A stretch of DNA of 64,000 nt from contig DASYJD010000013.1 of assembly GCA_035996875.1 (NCBI GenBank), positions 114 through 64,113 of the forward strand. Reading direction: 5' to 3'. This DNA is from Thermoanaerobaculia bacterium (GTDB taxonomy: Bacteria > Acidobacteriota > Thermoanaerobaculia > Multivoradales > UBA5704). The position numbers and the translations under genes are program-made. Below the pieces are notes generated by a model, which was given only the letters and a program-made list of their open reading frames with translations, was not told the DNA's origin and did no database searches. This document shows, piece after piece, positions 2,861 to 21,860 of the stretch. The stretch's first letter is position 1. Every line of letters starts with the position of its first letter.

Positions 2861-3040
2861 CTCCGGCTTAAGCAGCCGTTGCTCCGGCTTGAGCAGTCGT
2901 TGCTCTGGCTTGAGCAGCCATTGCTCCGGCTTGAGCAGCCATTGCTCCGGCTTGAGCAGTCATTGCTCCGGCTTGAGCAGTCGTTGCTCTAGCTTGAGCA
3001 GCCGTTGCTCCGGCTTAAGCAGCCGTTGCTCCCGCTTGAG
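2861..3040. repeat. 21-bp tandem repeat array, ~8.5 copies (unit CTCCGGCTTGAGCAGCCGTTG)
   Basis: Direct head-to-tail copies with point variants and no spacers, so not CRISPR. The same unit recurs as its reverse complement at 21649-21860. Confidence 0.85.
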
Positions 3041-3043
3041 TCT

Positions 3044-3721
3044 TCACCCCGCCTTCGCCGAGCGCCGCTCGGCCATCTTGAGGATGTAGCTCGCGGCGTC
3101 CGGCGTCTTGCAGCCGGTGTCGCCGTGGTCCACCTTCACCTTGCCGATGCGGCCGGCGGCGGCGAGGGCCTTCTTCTGCAGCGCCGGCTTCCTGCCGCCG
3201 ATAGAGATGAGGGCACCGTTCATCTGATGGCGCACCCGGTTCTGGCTGCCGTGGAGATCGCGCTCGATGCGGGCGAGGGCCTCCTCGGCTTCGGCGTCGG
3301 AGAGCTCGCCCTCCGCGACGAGGTGGGAGAGGACGGTCCAGCCGGCCGAGGCGGTCAGCTCCACCGGGGACTCGATCCACCGCTCCATCGCCTCCCGCGC
3401 CACCGAGGACTTCACCGCGAGACCGGCCAGATATCCCGTCTCGATGTAGTTGGCGAGGCTCGCCGCCCAGGCGTCGAGGGTCGCGCCGTCGAGCTTCTTC
3501 GGGTCGGCGACCATCGTCGCCAGGATACGGGCCTCGTGGTTGCCGGAGGCCCACAGCTCTCCCGCCAGCGCGTGGTCTTGTTTGATCTTCTTCCGGAGGC
3601 TCGTGAGGTCCGGCGTGCTGACACCGTAGCAATCCTCGCCCGCGCCATGCCGCCGGTAGGTCTTCCGCGTCTGCTCCTTGCCGGCTGACTTCAGAGAATC
3701 GAGGGTCTGTTGGAGGTTCAT
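3044..3721 (-). CDS. DNA alkylation repair enzyme (AlkD-like HEAT-repeat protein)
   Basis: 225-aa product resembles the DNA alkylation repair (AlkC/AlkD-like) family in size and repeat character, e.g. GELWASGNHEARILATMVADP. Confidence 0.65.
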   Translation of the reverse strand: MNLQQTLDSLKSAGKEQTRKTYRRHGAGEDCYGVSTPDLTSLRKKIKQDHALAGELWASGNHEARILATMVADPKKLDGATLDAWAASLANYIETGYLAGLAVKSSVAREAMERWIESPVELTASAGWTVLSHLVAEGELSDAEAEEALARIERDLHGSQNRVRHQMNGALISIGGRKPALQKKALAAAGRIGKVKVDHGDTGCKTPDAASYILKMAERRSAKAG

Positions 3722-3737
3722 GCCTCGATTCTATCTC

Positions 3738-6482
3738 TCACTCGTCCTCGCTCGCGTTGTCGTACCGTACCAGCGCCACCTTCCAGATTCCCGGCGCCTC
3801 GGTGACGCCCCACTGCCAGACGTCGTGGTCGAACTGCGCGGTCGTGGTGCCGAGAGTGGCGATGGCCTGATCGGTGGTTTTGCCGGCGTTGAAGGCGTCG
3901 AGGAGGCGGTGGATGCCCGCGCGGCCGTAGCGGTGCTCGACGTAATGAAGGGTCCAGCGCGACTCGTCGTAGCCAATGGCGATGAGCGCCGGCGAGAGGC
4001 TGCCGATGGCGGGCTCCAGCAGCGGGAAGCCGAGCAGATTGCTCTTGTCGCGGTAACCCTGGATGGGATTTACATTCTCCTGCACCATCTCGACGTGCTG
4101 TGCCAAGCCCTCCTGGAACCAGTGCGGTGCCCGGTCGCCCGTCCGCTCGGCGATCATGGCGTGGGCCAGCTCGTGGGTGAGGATGCTGACGACGAACGGC
4201 ACGAACCTCGGGGCATCGCCCAGCGGCACGCGGATCTTGCCGTCGTAAAGCCCGAGGATGTCGAGCCCCGGCGAGTAGCCGGCCTGAAAGTCGTCGAAAT
4301 GCAGGATGTGGACCTCGGTGGATTTGGACGAGCTGAGGGGAATCCACGCTTGCAGGCGGCTGCGCTCGGCCTCCAGAATGCGGGCCGCGTCTTTGGCGAA
4401 AGCCTCTCCGCGCAACGGCGGATAGTGGATCTCGAAGTGCGGGCTGCGATAGATCTCGGAGGAGACCGCCAGGCGCTTCTCCATCTGGATCTGCCGGATC
4501 CGCGCGTCGCCTGCCTCGAAGGGAAGCTCCGAGTTGGCCTTGGCCACGAGCTTGAGGGCCGTATCGAAATTCCCCTCGGCGGCCAGCAGATCGGCAAGCT
4601 GGTAGAGCGTCTCGGGGTCCATCCGCTGGCCGGCCTTGTCGCCCTGGACCACCCGCACGAGCAGATCGCGCGCCTCCTTCTCGCGCCCCGCTCGCCGCAG
4701 GGCCTCGGCGCGGAGCCGCAGGAGCCCGGAAGGCAGGCTCGCGACCTCCTGAGAGAGGCTCTCGGTCAGCGTCAGCACCTCGCCCCACCGTTGCCTTCCG
4801 GCCAGGGCTTCCGCGGTGCCCTCCGTCTGGCGCCGTAGAGACGGCTGGGCGAGGGCGCCCGGAGTGCGGGCCGCCGCCTGGAGCGCCGGCAGGCCGGCCA
4901 GCAGCTTCTCCTCCCGCTCGTCGTTCCAGAGGCCGGCATAGTCGACTCTCGTGCCCGGCGGCGCCAGGTCGCAGCCTCCGGGCACTCGCAGCTCTGCCGG
5001 GCCGCGGGTCAGCCGCAGCGTCTGGCCGAGCAGGCGCGCCTCGAAGCCGGCCGGCGGCGACAAGGCGCGGCTGGAGGCTCCCGCGCAGGCCACCACGGGA
5101 TCCGTGGCCGACTCCAGATGCACGAGCCGCCGGATCTGGGCGTCCTGGAACAGGGCGAGCAGCGCCGGCCGGTCCATCACCTCCGAACGTGCGATCGGCT
5201 GCAACTGCCAGGCGATGCGGAAGAGCTCCTCCGCCTCCGCCAACCGATGGTCCCGCACCGCCGTCTCCGCCAGCTCGAGATAGGTGTCCGCCCGCCGCGA
5301 TCCGAGCTCCTGGAGCTGGCGCAGGAACGCCAGGGCGTGACCGCGAAATCCCAGCACCAGGAAGGCCTGGGCGCTTTCCGCCAACAGCCCCTCCTGCGGC
5401 GCTCCCACCGTGGCGGCCCGCTGGTAGGCGGTGGCCGTAGGCAGCTCCTGGAGACGCAGGAACGCCAAGCGGGCCCGCAGCAGCTCGGCCAGCGGAAACC
5501 GTCCCGGCGACGGGAAGCCGGCGAGAAGGCCGTCGACGCCATGGAAGTCCATGCGCCCGAGGAGGTGCTGCGTCCACCAAAGGCTGGCGACGCGCCCGGC
5601 CGTGCCGGGGCCGTGCATGGCGGTCGGCGCCGCCTCCGGCACGGTCCCTCCCGGCTGGGTGAGCGCTTGGCGCAGCGGCAACAGCGAACGCAGCTCGGCG
5701 AAATCCGGTTCTCCGCCGCCCTTCGTTGCGCCGGACGCGCCGGCAGCGCCCCGAGACGCCAGCACCCGCGGCAGGAACACCATCGCCAGCGCTCCGGCCA
5801 CCACCAGCGCTCCGGCGATCCCCAGCCCGAGGGCGACGCCTCGCCGCGGCCGCTGATCCCAGGCCGCCAGCAGAAGGACCAGGCCGATTCCGACGATCCC
5901 ACCGATCATCCACAAGGGCAGCATGCCGAACCGGTGGGCCGTGGCCGCCCGCTTGGCCTCCGGTCCCTCGGGCGATCCGGCGGCGGACGTCACGGATGTC
6001 GCGGACATCGCGGCGCTCGCGGCGCTCGCGGCCACAGGCTCGGCGGAGATCCGCAGCGAGTCGATCTTCCACCCTCCGCCCTCCATCACGAGGCCGAGGA
6101 TCAGGGTGTCGTCGAGCCCCGAAGGGAACTGGAGAGCGAAGACGGCGCCCGAAGCGGAGAGCTCGGGAGCGGCGGCCTGGAGCTCCCACTGCGCCTCGGC
6201 GGGCGAGCCGGCCCGCACCTCGATCTCGGCCAGCGCGGCGTCGCGCCCCAGCCGGCGCAGAGGCGAGGTGCGCGACAGGTGATCCCACCAGGCGGCGGGG
6301 CCCCGCTCCAGGTACTCGGCGGCGAAGACGACGCCCTGCCGCTCGGCGTCGCTGAGCGGCCGCGGTCCGGCGGGTGCCGGAGCCGCGAGGGCGGAGCCGG
6401 CGGCGGTCATCGCACAGAGGAGAGCTGCGGCAACGGCGGCTCGCGTCGTGAGCATCGGTTCGGTTCCTTCCTCGAAATGCAA
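3738..6482 (-). CDS. large membrane protein with TPR-like repeats and C-terminal HExxH zinc-metallopeptidase-like domain
   Basis: 914 aa. N-terminal signal sequence, two internal TM helices (LPLWMIGGIVGIGLVLLLAAW ... LGLGIAGALVVAGALAMVFL), helical repeat region, and a C-terminal SILTHELAHAMIAERTG motif (HExxH). Confidence 0.6.
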   Translation of the reverse strand: MHFEEGTEPMLTTRAAVAAALLCAMTAAGSALAAPAPAGPRPLSDAERQGVVFAAEYLERGPAAWWDHLSRTSPLRRLGRDAALAEIEVRAGSPAEAQWELQAAAPELSASGAVFALQFPSGLDDTLILGLVMEGGGWKIDSLRISAEPVAASAASAAMSATSVTSAAGSPEGPEAKRAATAHRFGMLPLWMIGGIVGIGLVLLLAAWDQRPRRGVALGLGIAGALVVAGALAMVFLPRVLASRGAAGASGATKGGGEPDFAELRSLLPLRQALTQPGGTVPEAAPTAMHGPGTAGRVASLWWTQHLLGRMDFHGVDGLLAGFPSPGRFPLAELLRARLAFLRLQELPTATAYQRAATVGAPQEGLLAESAQAFLVLGFRGHALAFLRQLQELGSRRADTYLELAETAVRDHRLAEAEELFRIAWQLQPIARSEVMDRPALLALFQDAQIRRLVHLESATDPVVACAGASSRALSPPAGFEARLLGQTLRLTRGPAELRVPGGCDLAPPGTRVDYAGLWNDEREEKLLAGLPALQAAARTPGALAQPSLRRQTEGTAEALAGRQRWGEVLTLTESLSQEVASLPSGLLRLRAEALRRAGREKEARDLLVRVVQGDKAGQRMDPETLYQLADLLAAEGNFDTALKLVAKANSELPFEAGDARIRQIQMEKRLAVSSEIYRSPHFEIHYPPLRGEAFAKDAARILEAERSRLQAWIPLSSSKSTEVHILHFDDFQAGYSPGLDILGLYDGKIRVPLGDAPRFVPFVVSILTHELAHAMIAERTGDRAPHWFQEGLAQHVEMVQENVNPIQGYRDKSNLLGFPLLEPAIGSLSPALIAIGYDESRWTLHYVEHRYGRAGIHRLLDAFNAGKTTDQAIATLGTTTAQFDHDVWQWGVTEAPGIWKVALVRYDNASEDE

Positions 6483-6540
6483 TCGGGACTGGGGTCATTA
6501 TAAGATCAACGGCTCACACGAGTGCCTAGGAGGTGAGGAC

Positions 6541-7791
6541 ATGCGACGGAAGCTTCCGCCGGGACTGGCGATTACGCTGCTGGCATTCGCCATGGGTTGT
6601 GGCCGGGATGGCGGCAAGGCGCCGGCCGTCCTGCAGACGACGCCCGAGGCCATTTTCCTCATCCAGGACAACGAGGCGCGCTGCGTCAAGATCGGCCAAG
6701 CCCTCTCCCGGCGCCTGACCCAGGCCGAGGAGGAGATCGCCGACAGGGCGCGGGAGTCGTACAGAGCGGCCAGGAGACCCACGCGTGTGGAGTGGGATCC
6801 CCGCACCGGAAGGGTCTCCAACCCTCAGACCGTGGAGCCGACCTACCCGCCGGAAGAGCCCACGCCTCCCGTTCAGCCCTCGGAAGCCTTCAATCGATAT
6901 CTGGCCGAGGATGCCGTCGGAGAGCTGGCGGCGGTGGACACGGCCAAGGGCGAAATCCAGGATCTGCTCTCGAAGGTCAAAACCGAGGCACCGGCCGACC
7001 TTGCCGGTGCCGTGGCGGCGCTTTCCGGAGCTCACGAGCAGGTGTGCATCGCCATCCGGCGGTCGGCGTGGAGCTCGGCGCAGTATCGAAGGACTCTCGA
7101 GGTCACCGAGGACGCCTACAGGGCCGCCGAGGAGAAGCTGCGCCCCTTGTACACGGTCAGCGAGATGGACTCACAATTCGCCCTCCGCAAGTACGGCCCG
7201 CTCCTGGAGGAGGCCCGAACCGCCGCCCGCAACCGGAACCGCCCCGCCGCGGCCCAGCCTGTCAAGGATTACGAGCGCGACCAGCGGGAGTGGAAGGCGA
7301 CCCAGGAGATCCAAGCCCAGGAGCAGACCGAGCATGAAGTGGCCCTCAAGAAATATTACGTCAAGCGGGACGGGCCCCTGCAGGGGGCGCCGAGGCTGGG
7401 GGTCGTGATCAAGCCCACGCCATCTCCGGAGGAGCGGGCGCAGTCGATGAAGGTCTGGTACCCGCGCTACACGGCCAAGGTCGGCGGGGTCAAGACGGCG
7501 CTCTCCGCGTACCTCCAGTTGCGCAAGGCCGGAGTCACCGGCGAGTCGCTGTTCCAGTCCTGCGAGGCGTTGATGGCCGCCGACGTTCCCCTCCTGAACG
7601 ACCCTGTCGCGCTGGAGCCGCCGGACCCACAGGCCGCGGAGCCCCTGCGCGCCGCGTTCAGCGAGCTGCAGGCCCTGGCCCAAGCCTGCCACGACGGCCA
7701 AACCGCCGAGACCCTCATCCGTCTCGACGCCTTCGAGCGCACTCTCGCGCTGGCGGCCACGGCCCTGCGCCCCTATTCGCTGGCGCCGTAG
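6541..7791 (+). CDS. hypothetical lipoprotein
   Basis: Start MRRKLPPGLAITLLAFAMGCG has a lipobox (LAFAMGC) and is preceded by AGGAGGTGAGGAC. Coiled-coil-rich and proline-rich product. Confidence 0.6.
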   Translation: MRRKLPPGLAITLLAFAMGCGRDGGKAPAVLQTTPEAIFLIQDNEARCVKIGQALSRRLTQAEEEIADRARESYRAARRPTRVEWDPRTGRVSNPQTVEPTYPPEEPTPPVQPSEAFNRYLAEDAVGELAAVDTAKGEIQDLLSKVKTEAPADLAGAVAALSGAHEQVCIAIRRSAWSSAQYRRTLEVTEDAYRAAEEKLRPLYTVSEMDSQFALRKYGPLLEEARTAARNRNRPAAAQPVKDYERDQREWKATQEIQAQEQTEHEVALKKYYVKRDGPLQGAPRLGVVIKPTPSPEERAQSMKVWYPRYTAKVGGVKTALSAYLQLRKAGVTGESLFQSCEALMAADVPLLNDPVALEPPDPQAAEPLRAAFSELQALAQACHDGQTAETLIRLDAFERTLALAATALRPYSLAP

Positions 7792-7823
7792 TTTTATTTG
7801 TCAGATCGCTATCCGAGCCGGGA

Positions 7824-8149
7824 GAAGACCCTCATCACCCCGGCCCTCTTCTCCCATCGCCCTCCCCCCAACCGGGAGACGAGGGAGCAAGGCAAAAACG
7901 CCCCAGGGGTACCCCTCTCCCGGCATAGGCGCTAACTTAACTTGGTCTTGGAGCTTCCCCCACCCAAGACCCTCATCACCCCAGCCCTCTTCTCCCATCG
8001 CCCTCCCCCCAACCGGGAGAAGAGGGAGCAAGGCAAAAACGCCCCAGGGGTACCCCTCTCCCGGTGAGGGGGGGTTGGGAGGGGGCGGGAGAGGGGCAGG
8101 GGTGAGGGTCTTGGGCGGGGGAACCTCCCAGACCACGTTAAGTTAGCGC
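7824..8149. repeat. MITE-like composite repeat: ~97-bp direct repeat x2 plus terminal inverted repeats (GCGCTAACTTAAC...GGTCTTGG / CCAAGACC...GTTAAGTTAGCGC)
   Basis: Two near-identical copies (7826-7922, 7966-8063) and an imperfect complementary G-rich arm (8064-8130). Lies in the convergent intergenic region between the lipoprotein gene and cutA. Confidence 0.5.
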
Positions 8150-8168
8150 ATATGGGGGGAGACCCCCC

Positions 8169-8540
8169 TCAGTCCTCGTAGGCGATCTCTTCGTCTTCCT
8201 CGTCCTCGTCGGCAAAGTCGGCATTCTTGTCGACGCTGCCGGCGAGCCAGTCGAGGAAGCCCTGCTCGCCGCGGGCGACGCCGAAGGAGAGAATCTCGGG
8301 GAGCTCGTAGCTGTGCAGCTCACGGATCGTGGCCGCGACCGCCTCGAATTCCCCCTCCAAGGTCTTGACCAGCAGGAGCAACTCGCCGTCCTTGCAGATC
8401 TTCCCCTTCCAGCGGTAGATCGAACGCATCCCTGGCAGGATATTGACGCAGGCGGCCTGCCGGCGGGCAACGATCTCACGCGCGATCAAATTGGCCTGCT
8501 CTTCGGTTCCGACGGTGGTGACGATGACAATTGCCCCCAT
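8169..8540 (-). CDS. cutA: divalent-cation tolerance protein CutA
   Basis: 123-aa product with the characteristic CutA1 core (IVIVTTVGTEEQANLIAREIVARRQAACVNILPGMRSIYRWKGKI). Confidence 0.85.
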   Translation of the reverse strand: MGAIVIVTTVGTEEQANLIAREIVARRQAACVNILPGMRSIYRWKGKICKDGELLLLVKTLEGEFEAVAATIRELHSYELPEILSFGVARGEQGFLDWLAGSVDKNADFADEDEEDEEIAYED

Positions 8541-8573
8541 GCCGGCGACGTTACTGCACTCGTTTGGAGGGAG

Positions 8574-9185
8574 TCAATCGCGCCACGTCTGCGTTTTGGC
8601 GTCGTACTGAAGCACGTTCACCTTGCCCGTGCGGTCGGACAGCCTCACGACCACCAGGTGCCCGCTGCCGTTGCGCAGGTAGACCGAGCCCGGCGTCGCG
8701 GTGCCGAGCGGGCTGAACGAAGCCAGGTCGGAATCGTTGAAACGGATCGGGTCGTCCAGACGGTCCATCTTCTTGCCGGTGCTGGGATCCCGCGGTGGCG
8801 GCCCCGGCGGGAAACCGAAACCCACGTCGCGGCCCAGGAACTTGAGGCTCTGGGGAGGCATCACCAAGCGGTCCCTTCCGCTGGCGATGTCCTTGTTGAG
8901 GACGCCGTTGCCGTTGCCGTCCCGATAGAGGGCGAAGGTGACGACGCCGTTCGGCTCGGTGTTGAACTTCACCGCCACGTTGGCGTCGTACCGCTGGGCG
9001 AAGCTGCGCGAGCTGCGCAGCACGCCGACGATCTCGCCGGCCGCCATGCGCAGGCGCAAGTCGTCCGAGGTCCGCAGGAGCGGCGGCACTCCCAGAGTCA
9101 GAAGCGTACCCATCAACGCCATCACGACGAGCAGCTCGATCAAGGTGAAGCCCCTATGCAAGAGAATTCTCTGCGCGGGAGTCAT
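8574..9185 (-). CDS. prepilin-type N-terminal cleavage/methylation domain protein (type IV pilin / pseudopilin-like)
   Basis: N-terminus RGFTLIELLVVMALMGTLLTLG is the classic class III signal/methylation motif. Confidence 0.8.
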   Translation of the reverse strand: MTPAQRILLHRGFTLIELLVVMALMGTLLTLGVPPLLRTSDDLRLRMAAGEIVGVLRSSRSFAQRYDANVAVKFNTEPNGVVTFALYRDGNGNGVLNKDIASGRDRLVMPPQSLKFLGRDVGFGFPPGPPPRDPSTGKKMDRLDDPIRFNDSDLASFSPLGTATPGSVYLRNGSGHLVVVRLSDRTGKVNVLQYDAKTQTWRD

Positions 9186-9664: not shown

Positions 9665-10040
9665 GGTTTTGTTTCCTTTCGTTGATTCCGGCGTTGGATT
9701 TGAAAAACTTCGACAGGTCCTGCGTTTCCCTTTCCGTGTTGTGGCTTGGCCGTCTCTCTCGTCGCCACCTCCTCTCCGTGGTTGACGCGGAGGGGATAGT
9801 TCACGGGGCCTGCCAGCAGCCTTTAGCCAGCAAGCCTTTGAAAATAAACGGCTTGCTGGAGATCAAAAAAGAGGGGAAGGCAGGGGATACGGCGACTGCA
9901 TAGGCTCTGCTCGGACGCAGGGCCTGGCAAAGACAGGCGGAACGGGCGTTCCAAAGGGAAGTTAGGGGCCTGTCAGAGGATTACGGCAGCGAGCGCGATC
10001 TTTTGCGGGCCGGGCCGCTCTCAAGTACAGTAGCCTCACC

Positions 10041-10712
10041 ATGGCAGGAGAACGATCGATCTGGCGGGAGTACGCGGAGGCGCTGATCATCGCCGCGGTA
10101 TTCCTGGCGTTCACCAACACCTTCGTCGTCCAGACCTTCTACATCCCGAGCGGCTCGATGGAGGACACGCTCCTCATCGGCGACCACCTCTTCGTCAACC
10201 GCTTCATCTACGGGCCCGCGACCTTCGAAATCGGAAAGAAGCTGCTCCCCCTGCGCACCGTGCGCCGGGGAGACATCGTCGTCTTCCGGTCGCCCCAGGA
10301 CCCTTCGAAGGATCTGGTGAAACGTGCCGTGGGGGTGGGCGGCGACACGATCCAGCTCATCAACCAGAAGCTCTACGTCAACGACAAAGAGGCCGGCGAC
10401 GCGAGCTTCGCCCTCCACAAGGACCCCAACGGCTTCAACCCGCAACGGGATACCTACGGGCCCTACCTCGTGCCTTCCGGCCACGTCTTCTGCATGGGCG
10501 ACAACCGCGACAACTCCTACGATTCGCGGTTCTGGGGACCGTTGCCCGTCCACCTGCTCAAGGGGCGTGCGCTGCTCGTCTACTGGTCCTACGGCGGCAC
10601 GACCGCGGCCGGCCCCCAGAGCGCGAGAGAGAAAGCCGCGGACCTGTTGGAAACGGCGCTGGGCTTCTTCTCCAAGACCCGCTGGGCGAGGACGTTGCAC
10701 CTGATCCGGTAG
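10041..10712 (+). CDS. lepB: signal peptidase I (paralog 1 of 3 tandem)
   Basis: TM anchor then IPSGSMEDTLLIGDH (catalytic Ser box) and GDNRDNSYDSRFWG (box E). Confidence 0.9.
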   Translation: MAGERSIWREYAEALIIAAVFLAFTNTFVVQTFYIPSGSMEDTLLIGDHLFVNRFIYGPATFEIGKKLLPLRTVRRGDIVVFRSPQDPSKDLVKRAVGVGGDTIQLINQKLYVNDKEAGDASFALHKDPNGFNPQRDTYGPYLVPSGHVFCMGDNRDNSYDSRFWGPLPVHLLKGRALLVYWSYGGTTAAGPQSAREKAADLLETALGFFSKTRWARTLHLIR

Positions 10713-10772
10713 CGGAGCTCGAGCCGCCGTTCTTTGCAGGGCCGGGGCGCTTTCGGGTACAGTAACCGCGCC

Positions 10773-11456
10773 ATGGCGGAAGAACGATCGATCTGGCGGG
10801 AGTACACCGAGGCGTTGATCATCGCCGCCGTTTTCCTGTGGTTCACCAATACCTTCGTCGTCCAGACCTTCTACATCCCGAGCGGCTCGATGGAGGACAC
10901 GCTCCTCATCGGCGATCACCTCTTCGTCAACCGCTTCATCTACGGACCCGCGGCCTTCGAGCTGGGAAAAAAGCTGCTCCCTCTGCGCGCCGCGCAGCGC
11001 GGTGACATCGTCGTCTTCCGGTCGCCGGAGAACCCGCAGCTCGATCTCGTGAAGCGCGCCGTGGGCGTGGCCGGCGACAAGATCCAGGTCATCGACCAGA
11101 AGCTCTACATCAACGACAAGGCGGTCAACGACGCGAGCTACGCTCTGCACAAGGGAACCCCCGCGCCGGCGGGCAGCTTCATCACCCAGCGGGACAACTT
11201 CGGGCCCTACATCGTGCCGGCCGGCCACTACTTCTGCATGGGCGACAACCGCGACAACTCCTACGACTCGCGGTTCTGGGGCCCGCTGCCCGGTCACCTG
11301 CTCAAAGGGCGCGCCCTCTTCATCTATTGGTCCTACGGGGGCAAGACCGCGGCCGGTCCCCAGAGCCCCAGGGAGAAAGCTGCGGACCTGGCGGAAACAG
11401 CGCTGGGCTTCTTCTCCAAGACCCGCTGGGCGAGGACGTTCCGTCTGATCCGGTAA
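10773..11456 (+). CDS. lepB: signal peptidase I (paralog 2 of 3 tandem)
   Basis: Near-duplicate of paralog 1, including ~20 bp of leader sequence. Has the IPSGSMEDTLLIGDH and GDNRDNSYDSRFWG motifs. Confidence 0.9.
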   Translation: MAEERSIWREYTEALIIAAVFLWFTNTFVVQTFYIPSGSMEDTLLIGDHLFVNRFIYGPAAFELGKKLLPLRAAQRGDIVVFRSPENPQLDLVKRAVGVAGDKIQVIDQKLYINDKAVNDASYALHKGTPAPAGSFITQRDNFGPYIVPAGHYFCMGDNRDNSYDSRFWGPLPGHLLKGRALFIYWSYGGKTAAGPQSPREKAADLAETALGFFSKTRWARTFRLIR

Positions 11457-11479
11457 TCGGCCGGCTTACCGCCGTACCC

Positions 11480-12175
11480 ATGCACGAGAAATCGCTGCTC
11501 CGGGAATACCTGGAGGCCCTGCTGATCGCGGTCATCTTCGCGACCTTCGCCCGCACCTGGGTGGTCCAGGCGTTCAAGATCCCCTCGGGCTCGATGGAGA
11601 AGAACCTGCTGATCGGCGACCACATCCTGGTCAACAAGTTCATCTACGGGCCGACGATCTCCCCTCTGGAGGAGAAGCTCCTGCCGGTGCGCAAGGTGCG
11701 GCGGGGCGACGTCGTCGTGTTCAAGTTCCCCGACGACCCTACCCGCGACTTCATCAAGCGCTGCATGGGGCTGCCGGGCGACACCATGAAAATGATCGAC
11801 AAGGACCTGTTCATCAACGGCCGTCACGTCGACGACTCGAAGTACACCTGGTACGCCGACACGCAGTCCTACCCCCGCGAGCTCTACTTTCACCCCAAGC
11901 GGATGCGCGACAACTTCGGTCCCAAGACGGTGCCGCCGGCCAGCTACTTCTGCATGGGCGACAACCGCGACAACTCGAACGACTCTCGATATTGGGGAAC
12001 GGTGCCGGAGAGCTACCTCAAGGGACGGGCCTTCATGATCTATTGGTCGGTCGAAAACGATCCCGATATGGGGGAGTCGCCGGGCTCCGGGGTGCAGTTG
12101 CGGCAGTTGGGCCGCCTGGCCCTTCACTTCTTCTCTTTCACCCGGTGGGACAGAACCTTCCACGTCGTACGTTAA
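11480..12175 (+). CDS. lepB: signal peptidase I (paralog 3 of 3 tandem, more divergent)
   Basis: IPSGSMEKNLLIGDH and GDNRDNSNDSRYWG motifs. Start MHEKSLLREYLEALLIAVIF. Confidence 0.9.
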   Translation: MHEKSLLREYLEALLIAVIFATFARTWVVQAFKIPSGSMEKNLLIGDHILVNKFIYGPTISPLEEKLLPVRKVRRGDVVVFKFPDDPTRDFIKRCMGLPGDTMKMIDKDLFINGRHVDDSKYTWYADTQSYPRELYFHPKRMRDNFGPKTVPPASYFCMGDNRDNSNDSRYWGTVPESYLKGRAFMIYWSVENDPDMGESPGSGVQLRQLGRLALHFFSFTRWDRTFHVVR

Positions 12176-14770: not shown

Positions 14771-15654
14771 CGATTGTCTCCACGCTCGGTCAGGACATCG
14801 TAAAGCCGCATGAGCTCCTCTTCCGAATGGAAGTGGATCCGCACGAATCCCCCTTTGCCCTGGCGCTTGATCTCCACCCGGGTCTGGAGGCGGCGGGTGA
14901 GCTTCTCCTCCGCGGCGACGGTATGGACCTCGGCCGGACGGTCCGCTTTCTGCTTCGTTTTCGCCGGTTCTTTGGCAGCGGCGGTCAGCCGCTCGAGATC
15001 GCGGGCGGAGAGCCCCTCCCGCACCGCGCGCTCGGCGAGGAGGATCTGCTCGTCGGCATTCTCCAGACCCAACAGGGGACGGGCCTGGCCGGCGGTGAGC
15101 TGCCCCTCGCGCAGCAGCTCCCGCACCTCCTCCGGCAGGCGCAGGAGGCGCAGTGCGTTGGTGACCGTGGTGCGGGCCTTGCCCACCCGGGTGGCCACGG
15201 CTTCCTGGGAAAGGCCGAACTTATCCTGAAGGGCGGCGTAGGCTTCCGCCTCTTCTAGCGGATTCAGGTCGCTGCGCTGAAGGTTTTCCACCAGCGCCAG
15301 CTCCAGCAGCTCGCGGTCGTCCGCCACCTCGCGCACCACCACCGGCACACTCTCCAGCCCGGCCTTGCGGGCCGCCCGCCAGCGGCGCTCGCCCGCGATG
15401 ATTGCCCAGCCTTCCCCCTCGGGAGTGACGACGAGGGGTTGCACGATTCCCTGCGCGCGGATGGAGTCCGCCAGCTCCTCGATTGCCGCATCGGCGAAGT
15501 GGGTGCGTGGCTGGAAGCGGTTCGGTCGCAGGCTGTCGATGGGCAGGGTGCGAATCCCCTCCGGCGGCTTTTCAGGGACGGTTTCGAGCAGGGAATCGAG
15601 GCCGCGGCCCAGACCCCGCTTCTTTGGGGAAGGGGAAGTTGTATTGGGATTCAA
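14767..15654 (-). CDS. parB: chromosome partitioning protein ParB (Spo0J)
   Basis: ParB box GERRWRAA and HTH region. 295 aa. Confidence 0.9.
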   Translation of the reverse strand: MNPNTTSPSPKKRGLGRGLDSLLETVPEKPPEGIRTLPIDSLRPNRFQPRTHFADAAIEELADSIRAQGIVQPLVVTPEGEGWAIIAGERRWRAARKAGLESVPVVVREVADDRELLELALVENLQRSDLNPLEEAEAYAALQDKFGLSQEAVATRVGKARTTVTNALRLLRLPEEVRELLREGQLTAGQARPLLGLENADEQILLAERAVREGLSARDLERLTAAAKEPAKTKQKADRPAEVHTVAAEEKLTRRLQTRVEIKRQGKGGFVRIHFHSEEELMRLYDVLTERGDNR

Positions 15655-16403
15655 GCCGCCCTCCGCAGAAGCTCGCGGGCCACGGCCAGGTAGGCTTCGG
15701 CGCCCCGCGATTTGATGTCGTACTGGAAAATCGGCAGGCCATGGCTCGGCGCCTCGGCCAGGCGGATGTTGCGCGGCACCACCGTCTCGAACACCTTGCC
15801 GGCGAAGTGGGAGCGGATGTCCTCGGCCACGTCCTTCGACAGGTTGGTGCGGTCGTCATACATGGTCAGCAGGATGCCGGCGATGACGAGGCGGGGGTTC
15901 AGGCTGCCCTGCACCCGGCGGACCGTCGTCATCAGCTCGCTGATCCCTTCGAGCGCGAAGTACTCGCACTGCAGGGGAACGAGAACGCCGTCCGCCGCCG
16001 TCAAAGCGCTCACCGTCAGATGTCCAAGGGAGGGAGGGCAGTCGATGAGGATGGTGTCGTAGCGGTCCGCCACCGTCGCGAGGATTCCCTTGAGGCGCCC
16101 CTCCCAGCCGGACTCGCCCACGAACTCCACTTCGATACCCACCAGGTCGCGTTGCGAAGGAACGAGGTCGAGGTTGGGAAAGCCGGAGGGGCGGATCGCC
16201 TCCGCCAGCTGCACCTCGCCGGTCAAGGCGTTGTAGAGGTGCGGCGGGGAAGCCTTGCCGCCCAAGCCGCGGGTGGCATTGCCCTGAGGATCGCAGTCCA
16301 CCAGCAGGACGCGGCGCTCCAAGGCGCCGAGCCCGGCACCGAGGTTGATAGCGGTGGTGGTCTTGCCGACTCCACCCTTCTGATTCGCAATGGCGAGGAT
16401 CAT
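15651..16403 (-). CDS. parA: chromosome partitioning ATPase ParA (Soj)
   Basis: MILAIANQKGGVGKTTTAINL deviant Walker A. The 5' extension of the track ORF was rejected. Confidence 0.9.
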   Translation of the reverse strand: MILAIANQKGGVGKTTTAINLGAGLGALERRVLLVDCDPQGNATRGLGGKASPPHLYNALTGEVQLAEAIRPSGFPNLDLVPSQRDLVGIEVEFVGESGWEGRLKGILATVADRYDTILIDCPPSLGHLTVSALTAADGVLVPLQCEYFALEGISELMTTVRRVQGSLNPRLVIAGILLTMYDDRTNLSKDVAEDIRSHFAGKVFETVVPRNIRLAEAPSHGLPIFQYDIKSRGAEAYLAVARELLRRAA

Positions 16404-16426
16404 GGTCTTTTCGGCTTTCACGGCTC

Positions 16427-17062
16427 TCAAACTTGACGCAGGACCAGAATGCGCCGCCTTTCGCTGCCCGCCAGCTTGACGTCGCCACAGGTCACGAGGT
16501 CCGGCGGCAGACCGGGGTCCTGCTCGCCCACCCAGAGGATGATGCGCCCCCCGTCTCCCAGGCGCCGCGAGAGAGCCCCCCATACATCTGAATCGAGGCG
16601 CAAGGCTCGCGAGGTGATCACGTCGAGGCTCTCGGGCAGGCCGGACGGCAACGGAAGCCGCACTCTAACATTGAGGCATCGGCAGGACAAAGAGGCCCGG
16701 CGCGCGGCGGAGAGAAGGAACGCCCACTTCCGCTCCCGGGCCTCAACCAGGGTCATTTCCAGCTCCGGCCGCGCGGCGGCCAGCACCAGCCCGGGAAACC
16801 CCGCGCCTGATCCTAAATCCAGCCCCGTCTTCGCCCCAGCCGGCAGGAGAGGCAGCGCCGCCAGCGATTCGCCGAAGTGGCGGGCCAGGATTTCCCCGGC
16901 AGTGCCCGGCCCGATCAAGTTGAGCCGCTCGTTCCAGCGCCCCAACTCCTGGTAGTAGGCGTAGAGAGAATCCAACCCCTCAGAGCCCAGAGGCTCAGGG
17001 GAAAAGGGAGCCAGCTCGGAGGCGAAGTCGGCGCGTGAGAGGCGGGGGAGGGGAAAGGGCAT
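16427..17062 (-). CDS. rsmG: 16S rRNA (guanine527-N7)-methyltransferase RsmG (GidB)
   Basis: GidB family SAM-binding motif LDLGSGAGFPGLVLA. Conserved position upstream of parAB. Confidence 0.85.
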   Translation of the reverse strand: MPFPLPRLSRADFASELAPFSPEPLGSEGLDSLYAYYQELGRWNERLNLIGPGTAGEILARHFGESLAALPLLPAGAKTGLDLGSGAGFPGLVLAAARPELEMTLVEARERKWAFLLSAARRASLSCRCLNVRVRLPLPSGLPESLDVITSRALRLDSDVWGALSRRLGDGGRIILWVGEQDPGLPPDLVTCGDVKLAGSERRRILVLRQV

Positions 17063-17138
17063 ATCGGGGACGTTTCACGTGAAACGTAGGCACGCGGACA
17101 GCGGGGACGTTCCACGTGGAACGTCCCCTTTGGAATCT

Positions 17139-18194
17139 CTACGCCGGCCGAACCATGACCCGTTTGAAGTACCCATCGCCCTCGCTCTCGGTGGCGACGC
17201 CGGGGTCGTCCGCGAGGGTGACGTGGATGATCCTGCGGTCGCCGGGGTTCATGGGCTCCAGAATGCGGGGCTTGCCCTGCCGGCGAACCTCTTCCGCGAC
17301 CTTCTGAGCCAGACTGCGCAGCCGCTCCTCGCGGATCTCGTGGAAGTTGTCGCAATCCACTCGCACCGGCACGGGCTCGCCGGACAGGCTGCGGATCATC
17401 CGCGGCAGCAGGTGCTCCACCGCCTGGATCATCTCGCCGTCGTCCGCGAAACACCAATCCACGTCCTCGCCGGAGAGATCGACTTCCAGCCGCTCTTCAC
17501 CCTGGAAGACCTGGGCCTTCAAGTCCAAGCCCGCGATGCGCAGGAGAAGCTCGATGGACTTCGCCGCGGCGTCAGCGGCTGGACCCACGGCCACGGGGTA
17601 GCGGTCGGAGATTCCCCGCGGCTTCTCCGGCAGGGTCACCAATCCCTCGCCGGAACCACCTTCCAGGCGAAAGGGCTCGATGCCCGAGGACGGGCGGTCC
17701 CCGGTCCGGGGCGGACGGCGATCGTCGTCCCGGTGCCGAGGCCGATCATGGCGCTCGCCGCGATCCCCACGGCCGCCGCCGCGAGGCCCACGATCCGGGC
17801 CGCCACGGGAGCCACGGTCAGGACCACGGCCTTCAGGGCGCGCCATCGGAGCGCGCGGGGGGCGGTCTGCCTCCGGCCGGGCGGCGGCGGGAGAGTAGGC
17901 AGGGGGGGGTTCCGCCGCCGGGTGGGGAGCCGTGGGCTCCCGCAGCATGTACCCGGAGGGCGGCGCGGGGGGAGTCGCCCGGACCGTCGCCGGAGCGCTC
18001 ACCGGCGACTCCCGCTTCGGATTGTCGGGGTCGACCTCGATGACCACCTTGCGGCGAGTCTTGAGGAACCCGTGCCGCTTTTCGATGCTCTTGTAAGCCA
18101 CCCAGTCCGGGTCGAGGTTGAAGTAGTTGGCAGCCTGAATGATGGCCTGCTGCAGGCTGTCGCCCGAAAAGAACCGTCGTGTCGCGTCGTTCAT
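17139..18194 (-). CDS. jag: Jag/KhpB RNA-binding protein (Jag_N, KH and R3H domains) with long RG/Pro-rich linker
   Basis: N-terminal Jag_N (MNDATRRFFSGDSLQQAIIQAANYFNLD) and C-terminal R3H region (RILEPMNPGDRRIIHVTLADDPGVATESEGDGYFKRVMV). Lies downstream of yidC. Confidence 0.8.
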   Translation of the reverse strand: MNDATRRFFSGDSLQQAIIQAANYFNLDPDWVAYKSIEKRHGFLKTRRKVVIEVDPDNPKRESPVSAPATVRATPPAPPSGYMLREPTAPHPAAEPPPAYSPAAARPEADRPPRAPMARPEGRGPDRGSRGGPDRGPRGGGRGDRGERHDRPRHRDDDRRPPRTGDRPSSGIEPFRLEGGSGEGLVTLPEKPRGISDRYPVAVGPAADAAAKSIELLLRIAGLDLKAQVFQGEERLEVDLSGEDVDWCFADDGEMIQAVEHLLPRMIRSLSGEPVPVRVDCDNFHEIREERLRSLAQKVAEEVRRQGKPRILEPMNPGDRRIIHVTLADDPGVATESEGDGYFKRVMVRPA

Positions 18195-18229
18195 AGGAAT
18201 CGTCTCTGGGTCCTCCGCTCCAGGCCCCG

Positions 18230-19942
18230 TCATTGTGCCGCCTTCTGCTGACGGTTGTAAACCTGAAGCTGGATGATGGTCAGAATGTTGTTGGTCAGCC
18301 AGTAGATCACCAGGCCGCTGGGAAACCCGAGGAACAGGAAGGTCATGACGATGGGCATGAGCTGGAACATCTTGCGCTGCATGGGATCGCCGGCCTGCGG
18401 CCCCATCCGCACCTGGAGGAACTGGGAGATGCCCATGACGATCGGCAGCACGTAATAGGGGTCGTGCACCGAGAGGTCGTGGATCCAGAGTATCCAGGGC
18501 GCCTTGCGCAGATCGACGGCCGAGCCCAGCAAGCCGTAGAAGGCGAACAGGATCGGCATCTGCAGCAGCAGCGGGAAGCAGCCTCCCGCGGGATTCACCC
18601 CCGCCTCCTTGTAGATGGCCATCACCTCGTCGTTCATCTTTTTCTGCATCTCGAGGTTCGGCCGCCCCTGCTTGTCCTTGAGCTTCGTGCGGTACTTGTC
18701 GCGGATGCCTTGGACCTTGGGGTTGAGCTCCTGCATCCTGCGCATCGACATCGTGCTCTTGTGCGTGATCGGCAGGAGCAGCAGCTTGATCAGCACCGTC
18801 ATCAGAATGATGGCCCAACCATAGTTCTGCACGACGTGGTCGTAGATCCAGTGCAGACCGGCGAGGAGCGGGCGGGCGAGGAAGCTGAACTTCCCCATCT
18901 CCACCGTCCCTTCGAGGCCGAAGGGTAGGGCCTTCAGCCGCTCGTACTCCTTGGAGCCCCAATAGGAGACCAGCGTCAGGCGGTCGCCCGCCGGCTCCAG
19001 CACCATCGAGAACTCCCGCGGCAGATCCTTCTGCTCCTTGGTGATCAGATCCTTGGGCGGCACCGGGGCGAACGTCGCCCCCTCGCCCTTCGTCTCCTGC
19101 ACCATCACCGGCACGAGCACAGCCTTGTCGAGGCCGGTCTGCGGGACCTGGGCGGAGAGGAAATAGGTGTCCGCGAGACCGATCCAGCCGAGCCCCTGAC
19201 CCGCGACCTCGATGGGGTCGAAAGCACCCGCGGCATCGAGCACCTTGACGGCCTCGCCCTGCTTGTAGACCGCGCGGCGGTGCTCGAACCGGCTCTTTAT
19301 TTCCTCCGGCGTCAGATTCCGGATACCAGGTCCCAAAAGAATGCCCCAGTCGGAATGGCCGGGCAGCCGGACGTCGGCCTCCAGCAGGCCGCGCGGATCG
19401 AAGGCGAAACGCTTCTCGGCGACGCCCAAGGGGCCGCTGTAGCGGAAGAGAACAGAGCGGCCGTCGGCGCTCTTCTCTGCGCGGAAGAGCGCGTCGTCGA
19501 GAGGGTGGGGCTTCAGCGCCCTGGTGACCAGGGAGTAGGGGTAGGTGCCGCCAGCCCGCTTGCGCACCAGCTCCAGGCTGCCGCTGTTGCGGCTCGCCTT
19601 CTCCGGCACGATCATGGAGACGAGCTGCGCGCCACGGTTGGTGAAAACGGCTTGGGCGCGCCCGTCCGACAGGGTGACGCGCTCCTCGGCCGTGGCCTGA
19701 ATGGCTTCGGCAGGAGCGGCGGGATTGCCGACGCCCCCTCCGCCGGTGGCCGTCGGGGCCCCGGGAACGGGGGTCTGGCCCGCGGCTGGGGTTTGCGCTG
19801 TCTGCGAGGTCTGGGGTGATTGCGAAGCCAGCGGCGGCTTCGGACTGGGCGGCACGGGCTTGGGTGGCGGGAACAGCCAGAACCAGGCGCCGATGACGAC
19901 CATCGAGAGGAGAAAGGCGAGAAGCAGCCGGCGATTATCCAC
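18230..19942 (-). CDS. yidC: membrane protein insertase YidC
   Basis: 570 aa. N-terminal TM, large periplasmic domain, and conserved C-terminal 5-TM core (YGWAIILMTVLIKLLLLP...GCFPLLLQMPILFAFY). Confidence 0.9.
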   Translation of the reverse strand: MDNRRLLLAFLLSMVVIGAWFWLFPPPKPVPPSPKPPLASQSPQTSQTAQTPAAGQTPVPGAPTATGGGGVGNPAAPAEAIQATAEERVTLSDGRAQAVFTNRGAQLVSMIVPEKASRNSGSLELVRKRAGGTYPYSLVTRALKPHPLDDALFRAEKSADGRSVLFRYSGPLGVAEKRFAFDPRGLLEADVRLPGHSDWGILLGPGIRNLTPEEIKSRFEHRRAVYKQGEAVKVLDAAGAFDPIEVAGQGLGWIGLADTYFLSAQVPQTGLDKAVLVPVMVQETKGEGATFAPVPPKDLITKEQKDLPREFSMVLEPAGDRLTLVSYWGSKEYERLKALPFGLEGTVEMGKFSFLARPLLAGLHWIYDHVVQNYGWAIILMTVLIKLLLLPITHKSTMSMRRMQELNPKVQGIRDKYRTKLKDKQGRPNLEMQKKMNDEVMAIYKEAGVNPAGGCFPLLLQMPILFAFYGLLGSAVDLRKAPWILWIHDLSVHDPYYVLPIVMGISQFLQVRMGPQAGDPMQRKMFQLMPIVMTFLFLGFPSGLVIYWLTNNILTIIQLQVYNRQQKAAQ

Positions 19943-19998
19943 GGGAAATTATGTCCTTTGGGTCGATCGGATCGGGAGGGAATGAGGCCCGCCAAGGC

Positions 19999-20205
19999 CT
20001 AGGGGAGATCGATCCCGCCCGGATGGAACGGCTGGCAGCGCAGGAGCCGGCCGGTGGCCCGCAGCCCCCCGCGCCAGAAGCCGTATTTGAGAAGCGCCAG
20101 CCGGGCATACTCCGAACAGGTCGGAGTGAACCGGCAGGCGCGAGGGAGCAGGGGAGAGAGGCGGCGCTTGTAGACGCCGAGCAGGTACACCAGGAGACGA
20201 GTCAA
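19999..20205 (-). CDS. yidD: membrane protein insertion efficiency factor YidD
   Basis: LLGVYKRRLSPLLPRACRFTPTCSEYARLALLKYG matches the YidD (haemolytic domain) consensus. Putative TTG start overlaps the rnpA stop (TTGA). Confidence 0.7.
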   Translation of the reverse strand: MTRLLVYLLGVYKRRLSPLLPRACRFTPTCSEYARLALLKYGFWRGGLRATGRLLRCQPFHPGGIDLP

Positions 20206-20600
20206 GCCGCCGGCCCTCGCCGCTCCCGCAGGCCGGAGAACAGCCGCAGCAGCTCCGTCCGCAGCGAGGGGAAGTCGCTGCCCCGGGCCTCGGGCTTGAG
20301 GTGGATCACCAGGTCCAACGCAGGAAGCTGGCTGCGGTGCGGCCATCGCCGGTAGATCTCTTTGATCCTGCGCTTGAGCCGCTGGCGGACGACGGCCTTG
20401 CCGACCTTGCGGCTGGCGGTGATTCCGAGGCGCGGCCCCTCGAGCTGGTTCGGTACGAAATAGAGAATCGCCAGCGAGCCATGCCGCCGGCGTCCCGTCC
20501 GGTAACACCTGAGGTAGTCCTTCCGCTGCCGGAGCCGCTCTTCGGCCGACAGCCGTTCCGTGCCGGAGGCAGAGCGCGGGTGGCGCTCCTCGTCCGGCAT
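20202..20600 (-). CDS. rnpA: ribonuclease P protein component RnpA
   Basis: LRQRKDYLRCYRTGRRRHGSLAILYFVPN...ASRKVGKAVVRQRLKRRIKE. ATG overlaps the rpmH stop (TGATG). Confidence 0.8.
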   Translation of the reverse strand: MPDEERHPRSASGTERLSAEERLRQRKDYLRCYRTGRRRHGSLAILYFVPNQLEGPRLGITASRKVGKAVVRQRLKRRIKEIYRRWPHRSQLPALDLVIHLKPEARGSDFPSLRTELLRLFSGLRERRGPAA

Positions 20601-20734
20601 CAGACGCTCAGGCGCTTGCGTCCCTTCCGGCGCCGCCGGGCGATCACTGCCTGGCCGTGGCGGGTGCGCATCCGCACCAGGAATCCGTGCGTCCGCTTGC
20701 GGCGACGGTTGTTGGGCTGAAAAGTCCGTTTCAC
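20600..20734 (-). CDS. rpmH: 50S ribosomal protein L34
   Basis: Manual translation from a GTG start gives [44 protein letters not shown]. Not in the ORF track because it is under 60 aa. Confidence 0.85.
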
Positions 20735-20882
20735 TTGAGACCGCCTTCTTCCAAGTCGTGGTCATGATTTGCGGGATCGCCGGTCCTCCGGGGACCGCCC
20801 GCCGCGTCGAACGAAACCAATAAGGTAGATCACCTGGAGCTCGGGCGTCAAGAACCGCCCGTCCCGTACGAGTCGAAAGCGA

Positions 20883-20972
20883 ATGGCGGAGAGGGTGGGA
20901 TTCGAACCCACGGACCGGTTGCCCGGTCAACGGTTTTCGAGACCGTCCCATTCGACCGCTCTGGCACCTCTC
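20883..20972 (-). tRNA. tRNA-Ser (anticodon CGA), long variable arm
   Basis: Reverse complement GGAGAGGTGCCAGAGCGGTCGAATGG...GGTTCGAATCCCACCCTCTCCGCCA. Anticodon loop CT-CGA-AA, T-loop GGTTCGAATCC, encoded CCA. Confidence 0.8.
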
Positions 20973-20994
20973 CGGTAATTTGTCTGTCGAGATC

Positions 20995-21084
20995 GTGGCG
21001 GAGAGAGTGGGATTCGAACCCACGGTAGAGTTTCCCCTACACACGCTTTCCAAGCGTGCTCCTTAAGCCACTCGGACATCTCTC
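20995..21084 (-). tRNA. tRNA-Ser (anticodon GGA), long variable arm
   Basis: Reverse complement GGAGAGATGTCCGAGTGGCTTAAGGAGCACGCTTGGAAAGCGTG...GGTTCGAATCCCACTCTCTCCGCCA. Anticodon loop TT-GGA-AA. Confidence 0.8.
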
Positions 21085-21108
21085 CCGATCCTGCAAAGAA
21101 CCTTGTCG

Positions 21109-21546
21109 TCAAGGCTTTCGCCGCAACGACGCAAAGAAGCCGCGCAACAGCGCGGCGCTCTCACTTTCGAGCACGCCCGCCGTCACCTCCAGCCGGTGAT
21201 TCAGCCGCGGATCCTGGACCAGGTTGCCCAGGGTGCCGCAGTAGCCGGCCTTAGGATCCGGCGCCCCGTAGACCAGCCGCTCGATGCGGCTGTTCACGAG
21301 GGCTCCGGCGCACATCGGGCACGGCTCCAGGGATGCGTACAGCGTGCAACCCGTCAGCCGCCAGCCACCCATCCGCCGCGCCGCCTCCCGGATGGCCAGG
21401 ATCTCGGCATGAGCCAGCGGATCGCCGTCGAGCTCCCGGCGGTTGTGGCCCCTCCCCAACACCTCCCCCTCCCGAACCACCACCGCCCCGATGGGGACTT
21501 CCCCCAACTCGCCGGCGCGTCGTGCCTCGGCGAGGGCTTCCAACAT
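21109..21546 (-). CDS. tadA: tRNA-specific adenosine deaminase TadA
   Basis: HAEILAIREAA ... PCPMCAGAL zinc-binding deaminase motifs. The upstream ORF extension is a translation of the 21-bp repeat array and was rejected. Confidence 0.85.
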   Translation of the reverse strand: MLEALAEARRAGELGEVPIGAVVVREGEVLGRGHNRRELDGDPLAHAEILAIREAARRMGGWRLTGCTLYASLEPCPMCAGALVNSRIERLVYGAPDPKAGYCGTLGNLVQDPRLNHRLEVTAGVLESESAALLRGFFASLRRKP

Positions 21547-21648
21547 CCAGAGAGGGTCTTCTGGTCTCTCCAAGGCAAGCCTCCGCCCGAGCGGAACGCG
21601 TATGTTACCCGAGAAGGGCTCAAGCGCAAAGCCCGAGGCTTGACCAAA

Positions 21649-21860
21649 CTCAAGCCGGAGCAATGACTGCTCAAGCCGGAGCAACGGCTGCTCAAGCCAG
21701 AGCAACGGCTGCTCAAGCCGGAGCAACGGCTGCTCAAGCCGGAGCAACGACTGCTCAAGCCGGAGCAACGACTGCTCAAGCCGGAGCAACGACTGCTCAA
21801 GCCGGAGCAATGGCTGCTCAAGCCGGAGCAATGGCTGCTCAAGCCAGAGCAACGGCTGCT
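21649..21860. repeat. 21-bp tandem repeat array, ~10 copies (unit CAACGGCTGCTCAAGCCGGAG, reverse complement of the 2861-3040 array)
   Basis: Head-to-tail copies with point variants (CAATGACTG / CAACGACTG / CAATGGCTG), directly upstream of the tadA start. Confidence 0.85.

Follow-up and report, generated by a model that had tools for sequence, protein, structure and literature searches.

Non-coding satellite families occurring at several loci are known in bacteria but are rare (PMC6749651). The closest described systems are the mycobacterial interspersed repetitive unit-variable number tandem repeat (MIRU-VNTR) loci of Mycobacterium tuberculosis and the transposed satellites of Leptospira interrogans (PMC6749651), with which the repeats described here share several features: the arrays are intergenic and arranged head to tail, a unit occurs at more than one locus, the number of whole units varies between near-identical strains, and the sequence turns over rapidly. 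These repeats are two arrays of a single 21-bp unit, called A and B below, that lie in inverted orientation in a 64,000-nucleotide stretch of contig DASYJD010000013.1 (the window) from the assembly GCA_035996875.1 of a Thermoanaerobaculia bacterium. They differ from both described systems in unit length (40 to 100 bp in MIRU and 37 to 69 bp in Leptospira, PMC6749651) and in the dyad-symmetric core of the unit, and also in that array position and period are kept across the class while the unit is replaced. Literature searches on 21-bp intergenic repeats and on helically phased repeats returned nothing specific. We favor the reading, at a probability of roughly 55%, that arrays A and B form a lineage-restricted, non-coding minisatellite (VNTR) family shaped by slippage and by conversion between loci. 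This would be a clear case of a multi-locus non-coding satellite in an uncultured acidobacterial lineage, in which position, period, and length persist through replacement of the unit. The two arrays are as follows:

2859-3040, minus strand: array A, 8.7 units of a 21-bp satellite that reads GAGCA-AYGRC-TGCTC-AAGCCG on the minus strand.
21649-21861, plus strand: array B, which has 10.1 copies of this satellite unit and is flanked by two divergent genes, tadA and the one for the small secreted protein.

Both arrays were recovered by Tandem Repeats Finder (TRF) with a period of 21 bp and zero indels, at 8.7 copies and 90% matches for array A and 10.1 copies and 95% matches for array B. A head-to-tail, non-coding unit in the 10- to 100-bp range has the structure of a minisatellite. 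With up to three mismatches allowed, the 21-mer CTCAAGCCGGAGCAACGGCTG was found 18 times in the 64-kb window, compared with 0.01 matches expected from shuffled sequence. All matches fell within the two arrays, 8 on the minus strand in array A and 10 on the plus strand in array B, placing related arrays at more than one locus of one genome, as counted within the window. The inverted arms (2856-3041 and 21648-21833) span 186 nt each at 91% complementarity, with 18,606 nt between them. The TRF result and the motif count thus confirm the inverted pair of 21-bp arrays reported in the original prediction.

The unit has the form xAGCA-N5-TGCTx-N6, with two inverted pentamers per two helical turns, such that one pentamer falls in each turn and the gaps alternate between 5 and 6 nt. 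Read toward the small-protein gene, the consensus is GAGCA-AYGRC-TGCTC-AAGCCG. The pentamers are near-invariant, and the changes, all of them transitions, are confined to the two spacers. Arrays A and B are 91 to 95% alike, which is as close as the units inside either array are to each other. They have 14 exact stretches of at least 25 bp in common, the longest of which is 64 bp and carries three variant positions in identical order. The short, partly palindromic units and their regular period recall CRISPR. However, the units are contiguous, the pentamers lie only 5 to 6 nt apart, the gaps are themselves repeated, and there are no unique spacers; furthermore, the flanking open reading frames (ORFs) yielded no cas domains, and no leader was found. 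The earlier exclusion of CRISPR therefore holds.

Both arrays occupy intergenic, non-coding positions, as had been proposed. Array A starts 3 nt past the stop codon of the alkD-like gene, placing it 3' of that gene, and array B lies 5' of tadA, about 100 nt upstream of its true start. The immediate neighbors are as follows:

3044-3721, minus strand: AlkD-like DNA alkylation repair gene (Pfam PF08713 DNA_alkylation, E=4.9e-21), the 3' end of which abuts array A.
21109-21546, minus strand: tadA, encoding tRNA adenosine deaminase; the true start is at MLEALAEA and not upstream of array B.
21560-21625, minus strand: block (cttctcgggtaacatacgcgttccgctcgggcgg...) that separates array B from tadA and whose DNA is conserved in relatives.
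21918-21931: CCTCTATATAGAGG, a perfect palindrome of 14 bp that precedes the small-protein start by about 55 nt and is conserved at orthologous loci.
21989-22267, plus strand: gene for a 92-aa small secreted protein with a signal peptide and the motifs NGMTIDPDG and MPDPNG.
22391-23686, plus strand: gene for a 431-aa TPR protein with the N-terminal pattern H-x3-C-x2-C, in the same orientation as the small-protein gene.

The argument originally given for a non-coding nature, that the period does not fit a coding repeat, was wrong, since 21 bp is exactly 7 codons. In array B, one ORF (21109-21882, in the LEQPLLR frame) begins at an ATG and continues without a stop across the array and into tadA, and a public Joint Genome Institute (JGI) gene call (L036 5092-5907; L numbers are our labels for the sequences compared) joins the two into a 271-aa protein with an N-terminal LEQPLLR repeat. 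The array could on these grounds encode a heptad-repeat peptide, such as an N-terminal extension of TadA, but this is barely credible given the six-frame translation of 15 arrays and the ORF context in L019, L015, and L009. Stops were found in five of the six frames of array A; in the frame phased with tadA, array A contains a TAG and the orthologous array of L019 contains 3 stops. Another gene intervenes between array and tadA in L019, L039, and L041, and the reading frame of the linker between array and tadA differs between L015 and the window. The 145-aa form of TadA is complete with respect to its Pfam domains, spanning the deaminase profiles from position 8-9. A coding heptad repeat was rejected because its frame is conserved neither across copies nor in relatives. 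The 271-aa fusion is an annotation artifact, which arises because the 21-bp period preserves the frame, and arrays of this period are a hazard for gene callers. The block at 21560-21625 is kept among relatives as DNA without conservation of a reading frame and is likely the promoter or 5' leader of tadA. Separately, 21-bp repeats in L012 (11253-11345) and L021 (4002-4127) are coding and form an Arg/Glu/Gly-rich linker of Jag/KhpB downstream of yidC; therefore, not all 21-bp arrays in these genomes are non-coding.

Short Logan contigs of run SRR11678566 (L002 and L005) match the window at 100% identity, and two separate contigs of JGI metagenome 3300035671 match it at 99.9%, namely Ga0372940_0000056 (contig 56), which carries alkD and array A, and Ga0372940_0000009 (contig 9), which runs from cutA to recR including array B and then to dnaA. 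The source is an uncultured soil bacterium of the family Thermoanaerobaculaceae (Acidobacteriota), for which the best YidC matches show 85 to 92% identity. All compared assemblies are derived from short reads, and both the copy numbers and the junction discussed below are subject to that. A clean insertion of two units distinguishes array B of contig 9 (12.1 units) from that of the window (10.1 units). At the alkD site, the relatives L045 and L046 also differ by exactly 2 units. Copy number is thus polymorphic by whole units, while array A has the same number of units in the window and in contig 56.

The two arrays of the window appear to be connected in their recent history. In the interval 3' of alkD, relatives carry 20-bp arrays of an AAGCTT type, with about 22 units in L045 and L046 and about 6 in L047; no array was found in this interval of L049. 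The right flank of this site (GGTTGCGTTG...) is recognizably orthologous between the relatives and the window, so the window lineage holds a unit of the tadA-site type where relatives hold another. A three-unit haplotype is exactly common to arrays A and B, which points to array A having been copied from, or gene-converted by, array B recently, and the different unit at the alkD site of relatives would set the direction of copying from B to A. In L045 (4708-5164) and L046 (4705-5120), we also observed that the alkD-site array consists of two adjoining 20-bp sub-arrays, AAGCTTATCCGGCTGGCAAC and GAGAAGCTTGCTGGACGGCT, which are roughly reverse complements of each other and lie head to head over about 450 bp, with a DUF559 endonuclease-like gene inserted downstream.

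A scan of 185,579 species-representative genomes found no exact copy of the 21-bp unit. The JGI metagenome collection contained it once, on a 1.2-kb contig, at the contig end beside a paralogous small-protein gene. A search of PLSDB found no plasmid similar to the arrays, and two pattern matches in IMG/VR were unrelated low-GC coding repeats; a plasmid or phage origin was accordingly rejected.

The site between tadA and the small-protein gene was occupied by 21-bp arrays of 6 to 13 units in many lineages (the window, L036, L019, L044, L041/42, L038-40, L015, L007, L010, L009, L011, and L021). In these, the array lies beside the conserved upstream block of tadA, or 70 to 220 nt upstream of the start of the secreted protein of about 90 aa, or both; the latter spacing was seen at small-protein orthologues in 8 lineages. 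The units at this site have at least four unrelated cores:

AGCA-N5-TGCT core: the window, the JGI strain, L019, L044, L041/42, L038-40, and L003.
CCCTCGCGA core: L015, L010, and L007.
GGAGCGCTCC core: L009 and L011.
TCCGGC-N5-GCCGGA core: L021.

Within the AGCA-N5-TGCT family, six lineages share conserved positions 2-5, 8, 10-14, and 18-19, with variation elsewhere in the unit. The proteins flanking the arrays are 70 to 96% identical between lineages in which the units have been replaced, indicating that the arrays turn over far faster than the genes. The small-protein and TPR genes (21989-23686) make up a variable island, located between ffs/dnaX and tadA, that was found in about 10 lineages and is missing from 6 close relatives (L012-14, L017, L018, and L030). 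These relatives lack both the array and the whole island, so that their dnaX and tadA are adjacent. Within the same organism, a third intergenic array with a 21-bp period was observed on contig 9, past the junction of the window (L004 15132-15306); it has about 8 units with 63 to 65% matches and a different dyad core, CGCCGG-CA-CCGGCG.

Under the minisatellite reading, whole units would be gained and lost by slipped-strand mispairing or unequal exchange, a process that hairpin-prone dyad units probably favor, and the array sequence would turn over quickly by concerted evolution. Array A may then be a recent copy, or a conversion product, of an older array at the tadA site, and both arrays would sit in intergenic intervals that hold 20- to 21-bp arrays in many Thermoanaerobaculia, beside variable, island-like DNA. 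From the comparisons above, we infer both this mechanism and the lack of a sequence-specific function. Several observations weigh against it. Throughout a bacterial class, the same two intervals continue to hold an array, with a constant period of about two helical turns, a similar length (130 to 280 bp), and a dyad-symmetric core in nearly every unit type. Moreover, the conserved core and variable spacer of the AGCA-N5-TGCT family look like a binding site plus spacer, and the differences in copy number could partly reflect collapse during short-read assembly.

These observations leave some room for a second reading, which we consider possible but hold only tentatively, in which the arrays are helically phased protein-binding arrays, operator-like or iteron-like, with a dimer on each dyad core and, owing to the 21-bp spacing, every dimer on the same side of the helix. 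The bound filament would sit upstream of the tadA and small-protein promoters at array B and of the operon of a 593-aa secreted protein at array A, and the number of units would tune expression. Dyad cores are present in all unit families, the period is 20 to 21 bp everywhere, and across six lineages the core is conserved while the spacer varies. The array also abuts the conserved tadA upstream block and lies 70 to 220 nt from the small-protein start in 8 lineages, and its orientation toward the neighboring gene is not fixed (L003), as expected for a symmetric site acting at the DNA level. However, the core changes completely between lineages with 80 to 90% identical neighboring proteins, including the TPR protein, which is hard to reconcile with a sequence-specific regulator. 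There is no DNA-binding gene common to the contexts of arrays A and B, the array and island are missing together at the tadA site of L012-14, L017, L018, and L030, and a consensus scan for sigma-70-like promoters found none. The adjacent TPR protein was also considered as the specific binder and rejected, since its N-terminus is almost identical in the window and L015, where the arrays differ wholly, which argues against a co-evolving binder encoded next door. In a generic form, the earlier suggestion that the arrays are clusters of protein-binding sites may still hold. Arrays of sigma-54 or extracytoplasmic function (ECF) promoters were rejected on inspection because the spacings do not fit.

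In a third reading, which we regard as unlikely, the arrays are exchangeable cassettes of phased (20- to 21-bp) dyad repeats at set sites, of which the presence, period, and length are selected and the sequence is free. If this were true, the arrays would be structural cis-elements recognized by their shape or phase (a nucleoid-associated protein being one candidate reader), or would act as a supercoiling or promoter insulator between divergent genes, and the number of units could serve as a rapidly mutable expression dial for the small secreted peptide and its TPR partner. If persistence is not selected, the loci would at least be useful as VNTR markers for strain typing.

Folding of the arrays raises the question of whether they act as RNA. 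For array B, the folding energy is -148.8 kcal/mol (z = -7.2) on the tadA-sense strand and -118.8 kcal/mol (z = -4.8) on the other; both strands fold far better than shuffled sequence because of the dyad in the unit. When fold z-scores were computed with mononucleotide shuffles across the arrays of the different lineages, all AGCA-N5-TGCT arrays had values from -3.5 to -12. A transcribed array could form a long imperfect hairpin, as an RNase III substrate or stabilizer, or about 10 small stem-loops with a conserved AYGRC loop that titrate an RNA-binding protein. In line with this, the outer base pair of the stem is altered on both sides between lineages (G/C in the window, T/A in L041, and C/G in L039), and non-Watson-Crick pentamer pairs show an excess of G·U on one strand (25 versus 8 on the other, counts that are not independent), which also counts to some degree against the minisatellite reading. 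However, the strand favored by G·U pairs is opposite to the strand that folds best, and the outer pair is broken in 7 of the 11 units of L044. At the tadA site, the TCGCGA and GGAGCGCTCC arrays barely fold (z = -0.7 to -4), which we count as no better than shuffled sequence. Furthermore, array B lies 5' of both of its neighbors and array A lies 3' of one, so no transcript position is common to the two, and scans for promoters and terminators found none. A search of Rfam at gathering thresholds gave no match, and one at E-value thresholds gave only subthreshold hits to generic long-hairpin models at 25 to 35 bits against thresholds of 100 to 137 (best, MIR7526 at 34.5 bits against 110; isrG at 29 against 100). 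A function as RNA is therefore improbable. Mimicry of a TadA substrate by the loop ACGAC, which contains ACG, was considered and dropped because TadA requires UACG in a 7-nt loop and because the ACG strand is antisense to tadA.

The genes enclosed by the two arrays in the window include parB, parA, rsmG, R3H/jag, yidC, yidD, and rnpA, as assigned by Pfam (the original description named parAB, rsmG, yidC, and rnpA), together with two tRNA-Ser genes and tadA. That the arrays truly bracket this 18.6-kb segment is doubtful. The window matches contig 56 up to about position 8069 and contig 9 from about position 7986, so that the switch between contigs falls in a core of about 85 bp, identical between the two, that is part of the following element:

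7825-8157: composite element resembling a repetitive extragenic palindromic (REP) sequence, with 99-bp direct copies at 7825-7923 and 7966-8064.

Each 99-bp copy carries a CCCTCTTCTCCC...GGGAGAAGAGGG hairpin, and the element is bounded by inverted gcgctaacttaac and gttaagttagcgc arms. It is the sole sequence common to contigs 56 and 9, and the position of the junction within it (7924-8157) raises the possibility of an assembly chimera. In contig 9 and in nine relatives, cutA is followed by a Cys/Met-metabolism gene or IF-2B and not by the array A side, and an exact look-up of the CutA protein found no indexed contig with the junction of the window. The Logan contigs end at the REP-like element and inside both arrays. 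Because the array A side is joined to the cutA-recR segment only in the window, the 18.6-kb bracket is either a private rearrangement or a chimeric join, and its appearance serves as a caution that it may be an assembly join at a repeat. A motif related to this element was also observed at 2794-2808, beside array A.

These results bear directly on the proposal that the inverted arrays drive inversion of the enclosed, origin-proximal segment. RecA-mediated recombination between the arrays is physically possible, as their arms are 186 nt long and 91% complementary, and their exact stretches, which reach 64 bp and number 14 at 25 bp or longer, exceed the usual minimal length for homologous recombination by RecA in Escherichia coli. 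However, the order recR-ybaB-dnaX ... tadA-rnpA-yidD-yidC-jag-rsmG-parA-parB ... comEA-pilin-cutA was maintained, with unchanged orientation, in about 15 relatives, and the comparison showed no inverted segment among them. Inversion would flip yidC-parAB relative to dnaA (36310), an arrangement that was not seen. In the 99.9% identical JGI assembly the two arrays are on different contigs, nine relatives have a different gene beside cutA, and the bracket depends on a junction that falls within a dispersed repeat and is found in no indexed contig. With a single orientation in about 15 relatives and a bracket that is not reproduced, inversion is very improbable, and the proposal was not upheld.

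Under the favored reading, the arrays are neither an inversion device for parAB-yidC nor ParB sites. Two canonical parS-like palindromes are present elsewhere in the window:

17071-17086 and 17108-17123: parS-like palindromes CGTTTCACGTGAAACG and CGTTCCACGTGGAACG, between rsmG and jag.

A scan for parS gave 4 strand-matches against 0.28 expected, and the 21-bp unit has no similarity to parS (of the TGTTNCACGTGAAACA type). Binding by ParB was accordingly rejected, and with it the part of the earlier protein-binding suggestion that concerned a partition site. The centromeres of plasmids are likewise tandem arrays, with 12 copies of 43 bp, each containing an inverted repeat, in sopC of F and 10 copies of 11 bp in parC of R1. 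Arrays A and B resemble these in having tandem units that contain an inverted repeat and, for array B, in lying near the parAB operon. In contrast to plasmid centromeres, the chromosomal ParB has canonical parS sites, array A is unlinked to parAB in other assemblies, and the unit differs in relatives with nearly identical ParB, the array sequence being unrelated where ParB is 86 to 96% identical.

Iterons of replication origins provide a further comparison. The gamma origin of R6K contains 7 copies of 22 bp, and the origin of lambda contains 4 dyad-symmetric sites of about 19 bp. Arrays A and B share with iterons the direct repetition of 4 to 12 units at a period of about two helical turns and, with the lambda type, an internal dyad. 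Unlike iterons, they have no adjacent initiator gene (Rep/O), AT-rich unwinding region, or DnaA-box cluster; they are chromosomal, occur at two loci, have no similarity in PLSDB, and are not conserved in sequence among close relatives. The GC content around the arrays is 64 to 66%. A scan for DnaA boxes gave no more matches than expected by chance and none at the arrays, and dnaA (36310-37596) lies 14.5 kb from array B. Given this distance, the lack of DnaA-box enrichment, and neighbors that encode AlkD, TadA, a small secreted protein, and a TPR protein, an iteron-type replication origin was rejected. The arrays have no bearing on origin biology or on chromosome inversion.

With REPs and bacterial interspersed mosaic elements (BIMEs), the arrays have in common GC-rich palindromic intergenic units at several loci, one of them just 3' of a gene, and proximity to REP-like hairpins (2571-2755 and 7825-8157). 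REPs occur singly or in alternating orientation with variable linkers, whereas arrays A and B are strictly head to tail, with 8 to 12 units of 21 bp. No GTAG or CGTC terminal tag was evident by eye in the consensus of the unit, and neither a Pfam scan of the flanking ORFs nor the precomputed annotations of related loci showed a REP-associated tyrosine transposase (RAYT).

On the far side of array A lie two further features:

538-2319, minus strand: gene for a 593-aa protein with a signal peptide; going downstream from array A on this strand, it is the first gene, at a distance of about 540 nt.
2571-2631 and 2695-2755: inverted pair of GC-rich palindromic hairpins of about 35 nt (TGTAGAGACGCC..GGCGTCTC), 82% complementary.

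A Pfam search assigned no family to the 593-aa protein. The hairpin pair (2571-2755), which lies between this gene and array A, looks like a REP doublet forming a hairpin (REPIN). On the other side of array B, the palindrome CCTCTATATAGAGG is likely a promoter or operator of the small-protein gene, and the pairing of small protein and TPR protein resembles, as judged from the sequence, that of a secreted peptide with its TPR receptor. Between the arrays, a bactofilin gene immediately follows parB, and three tandem paralogous genes for signal peptidase I (Peptidase_S26; 9981-12163, JGI annotation at L004 7490-9624) are about 80 to 85% identical in DNA sequence.

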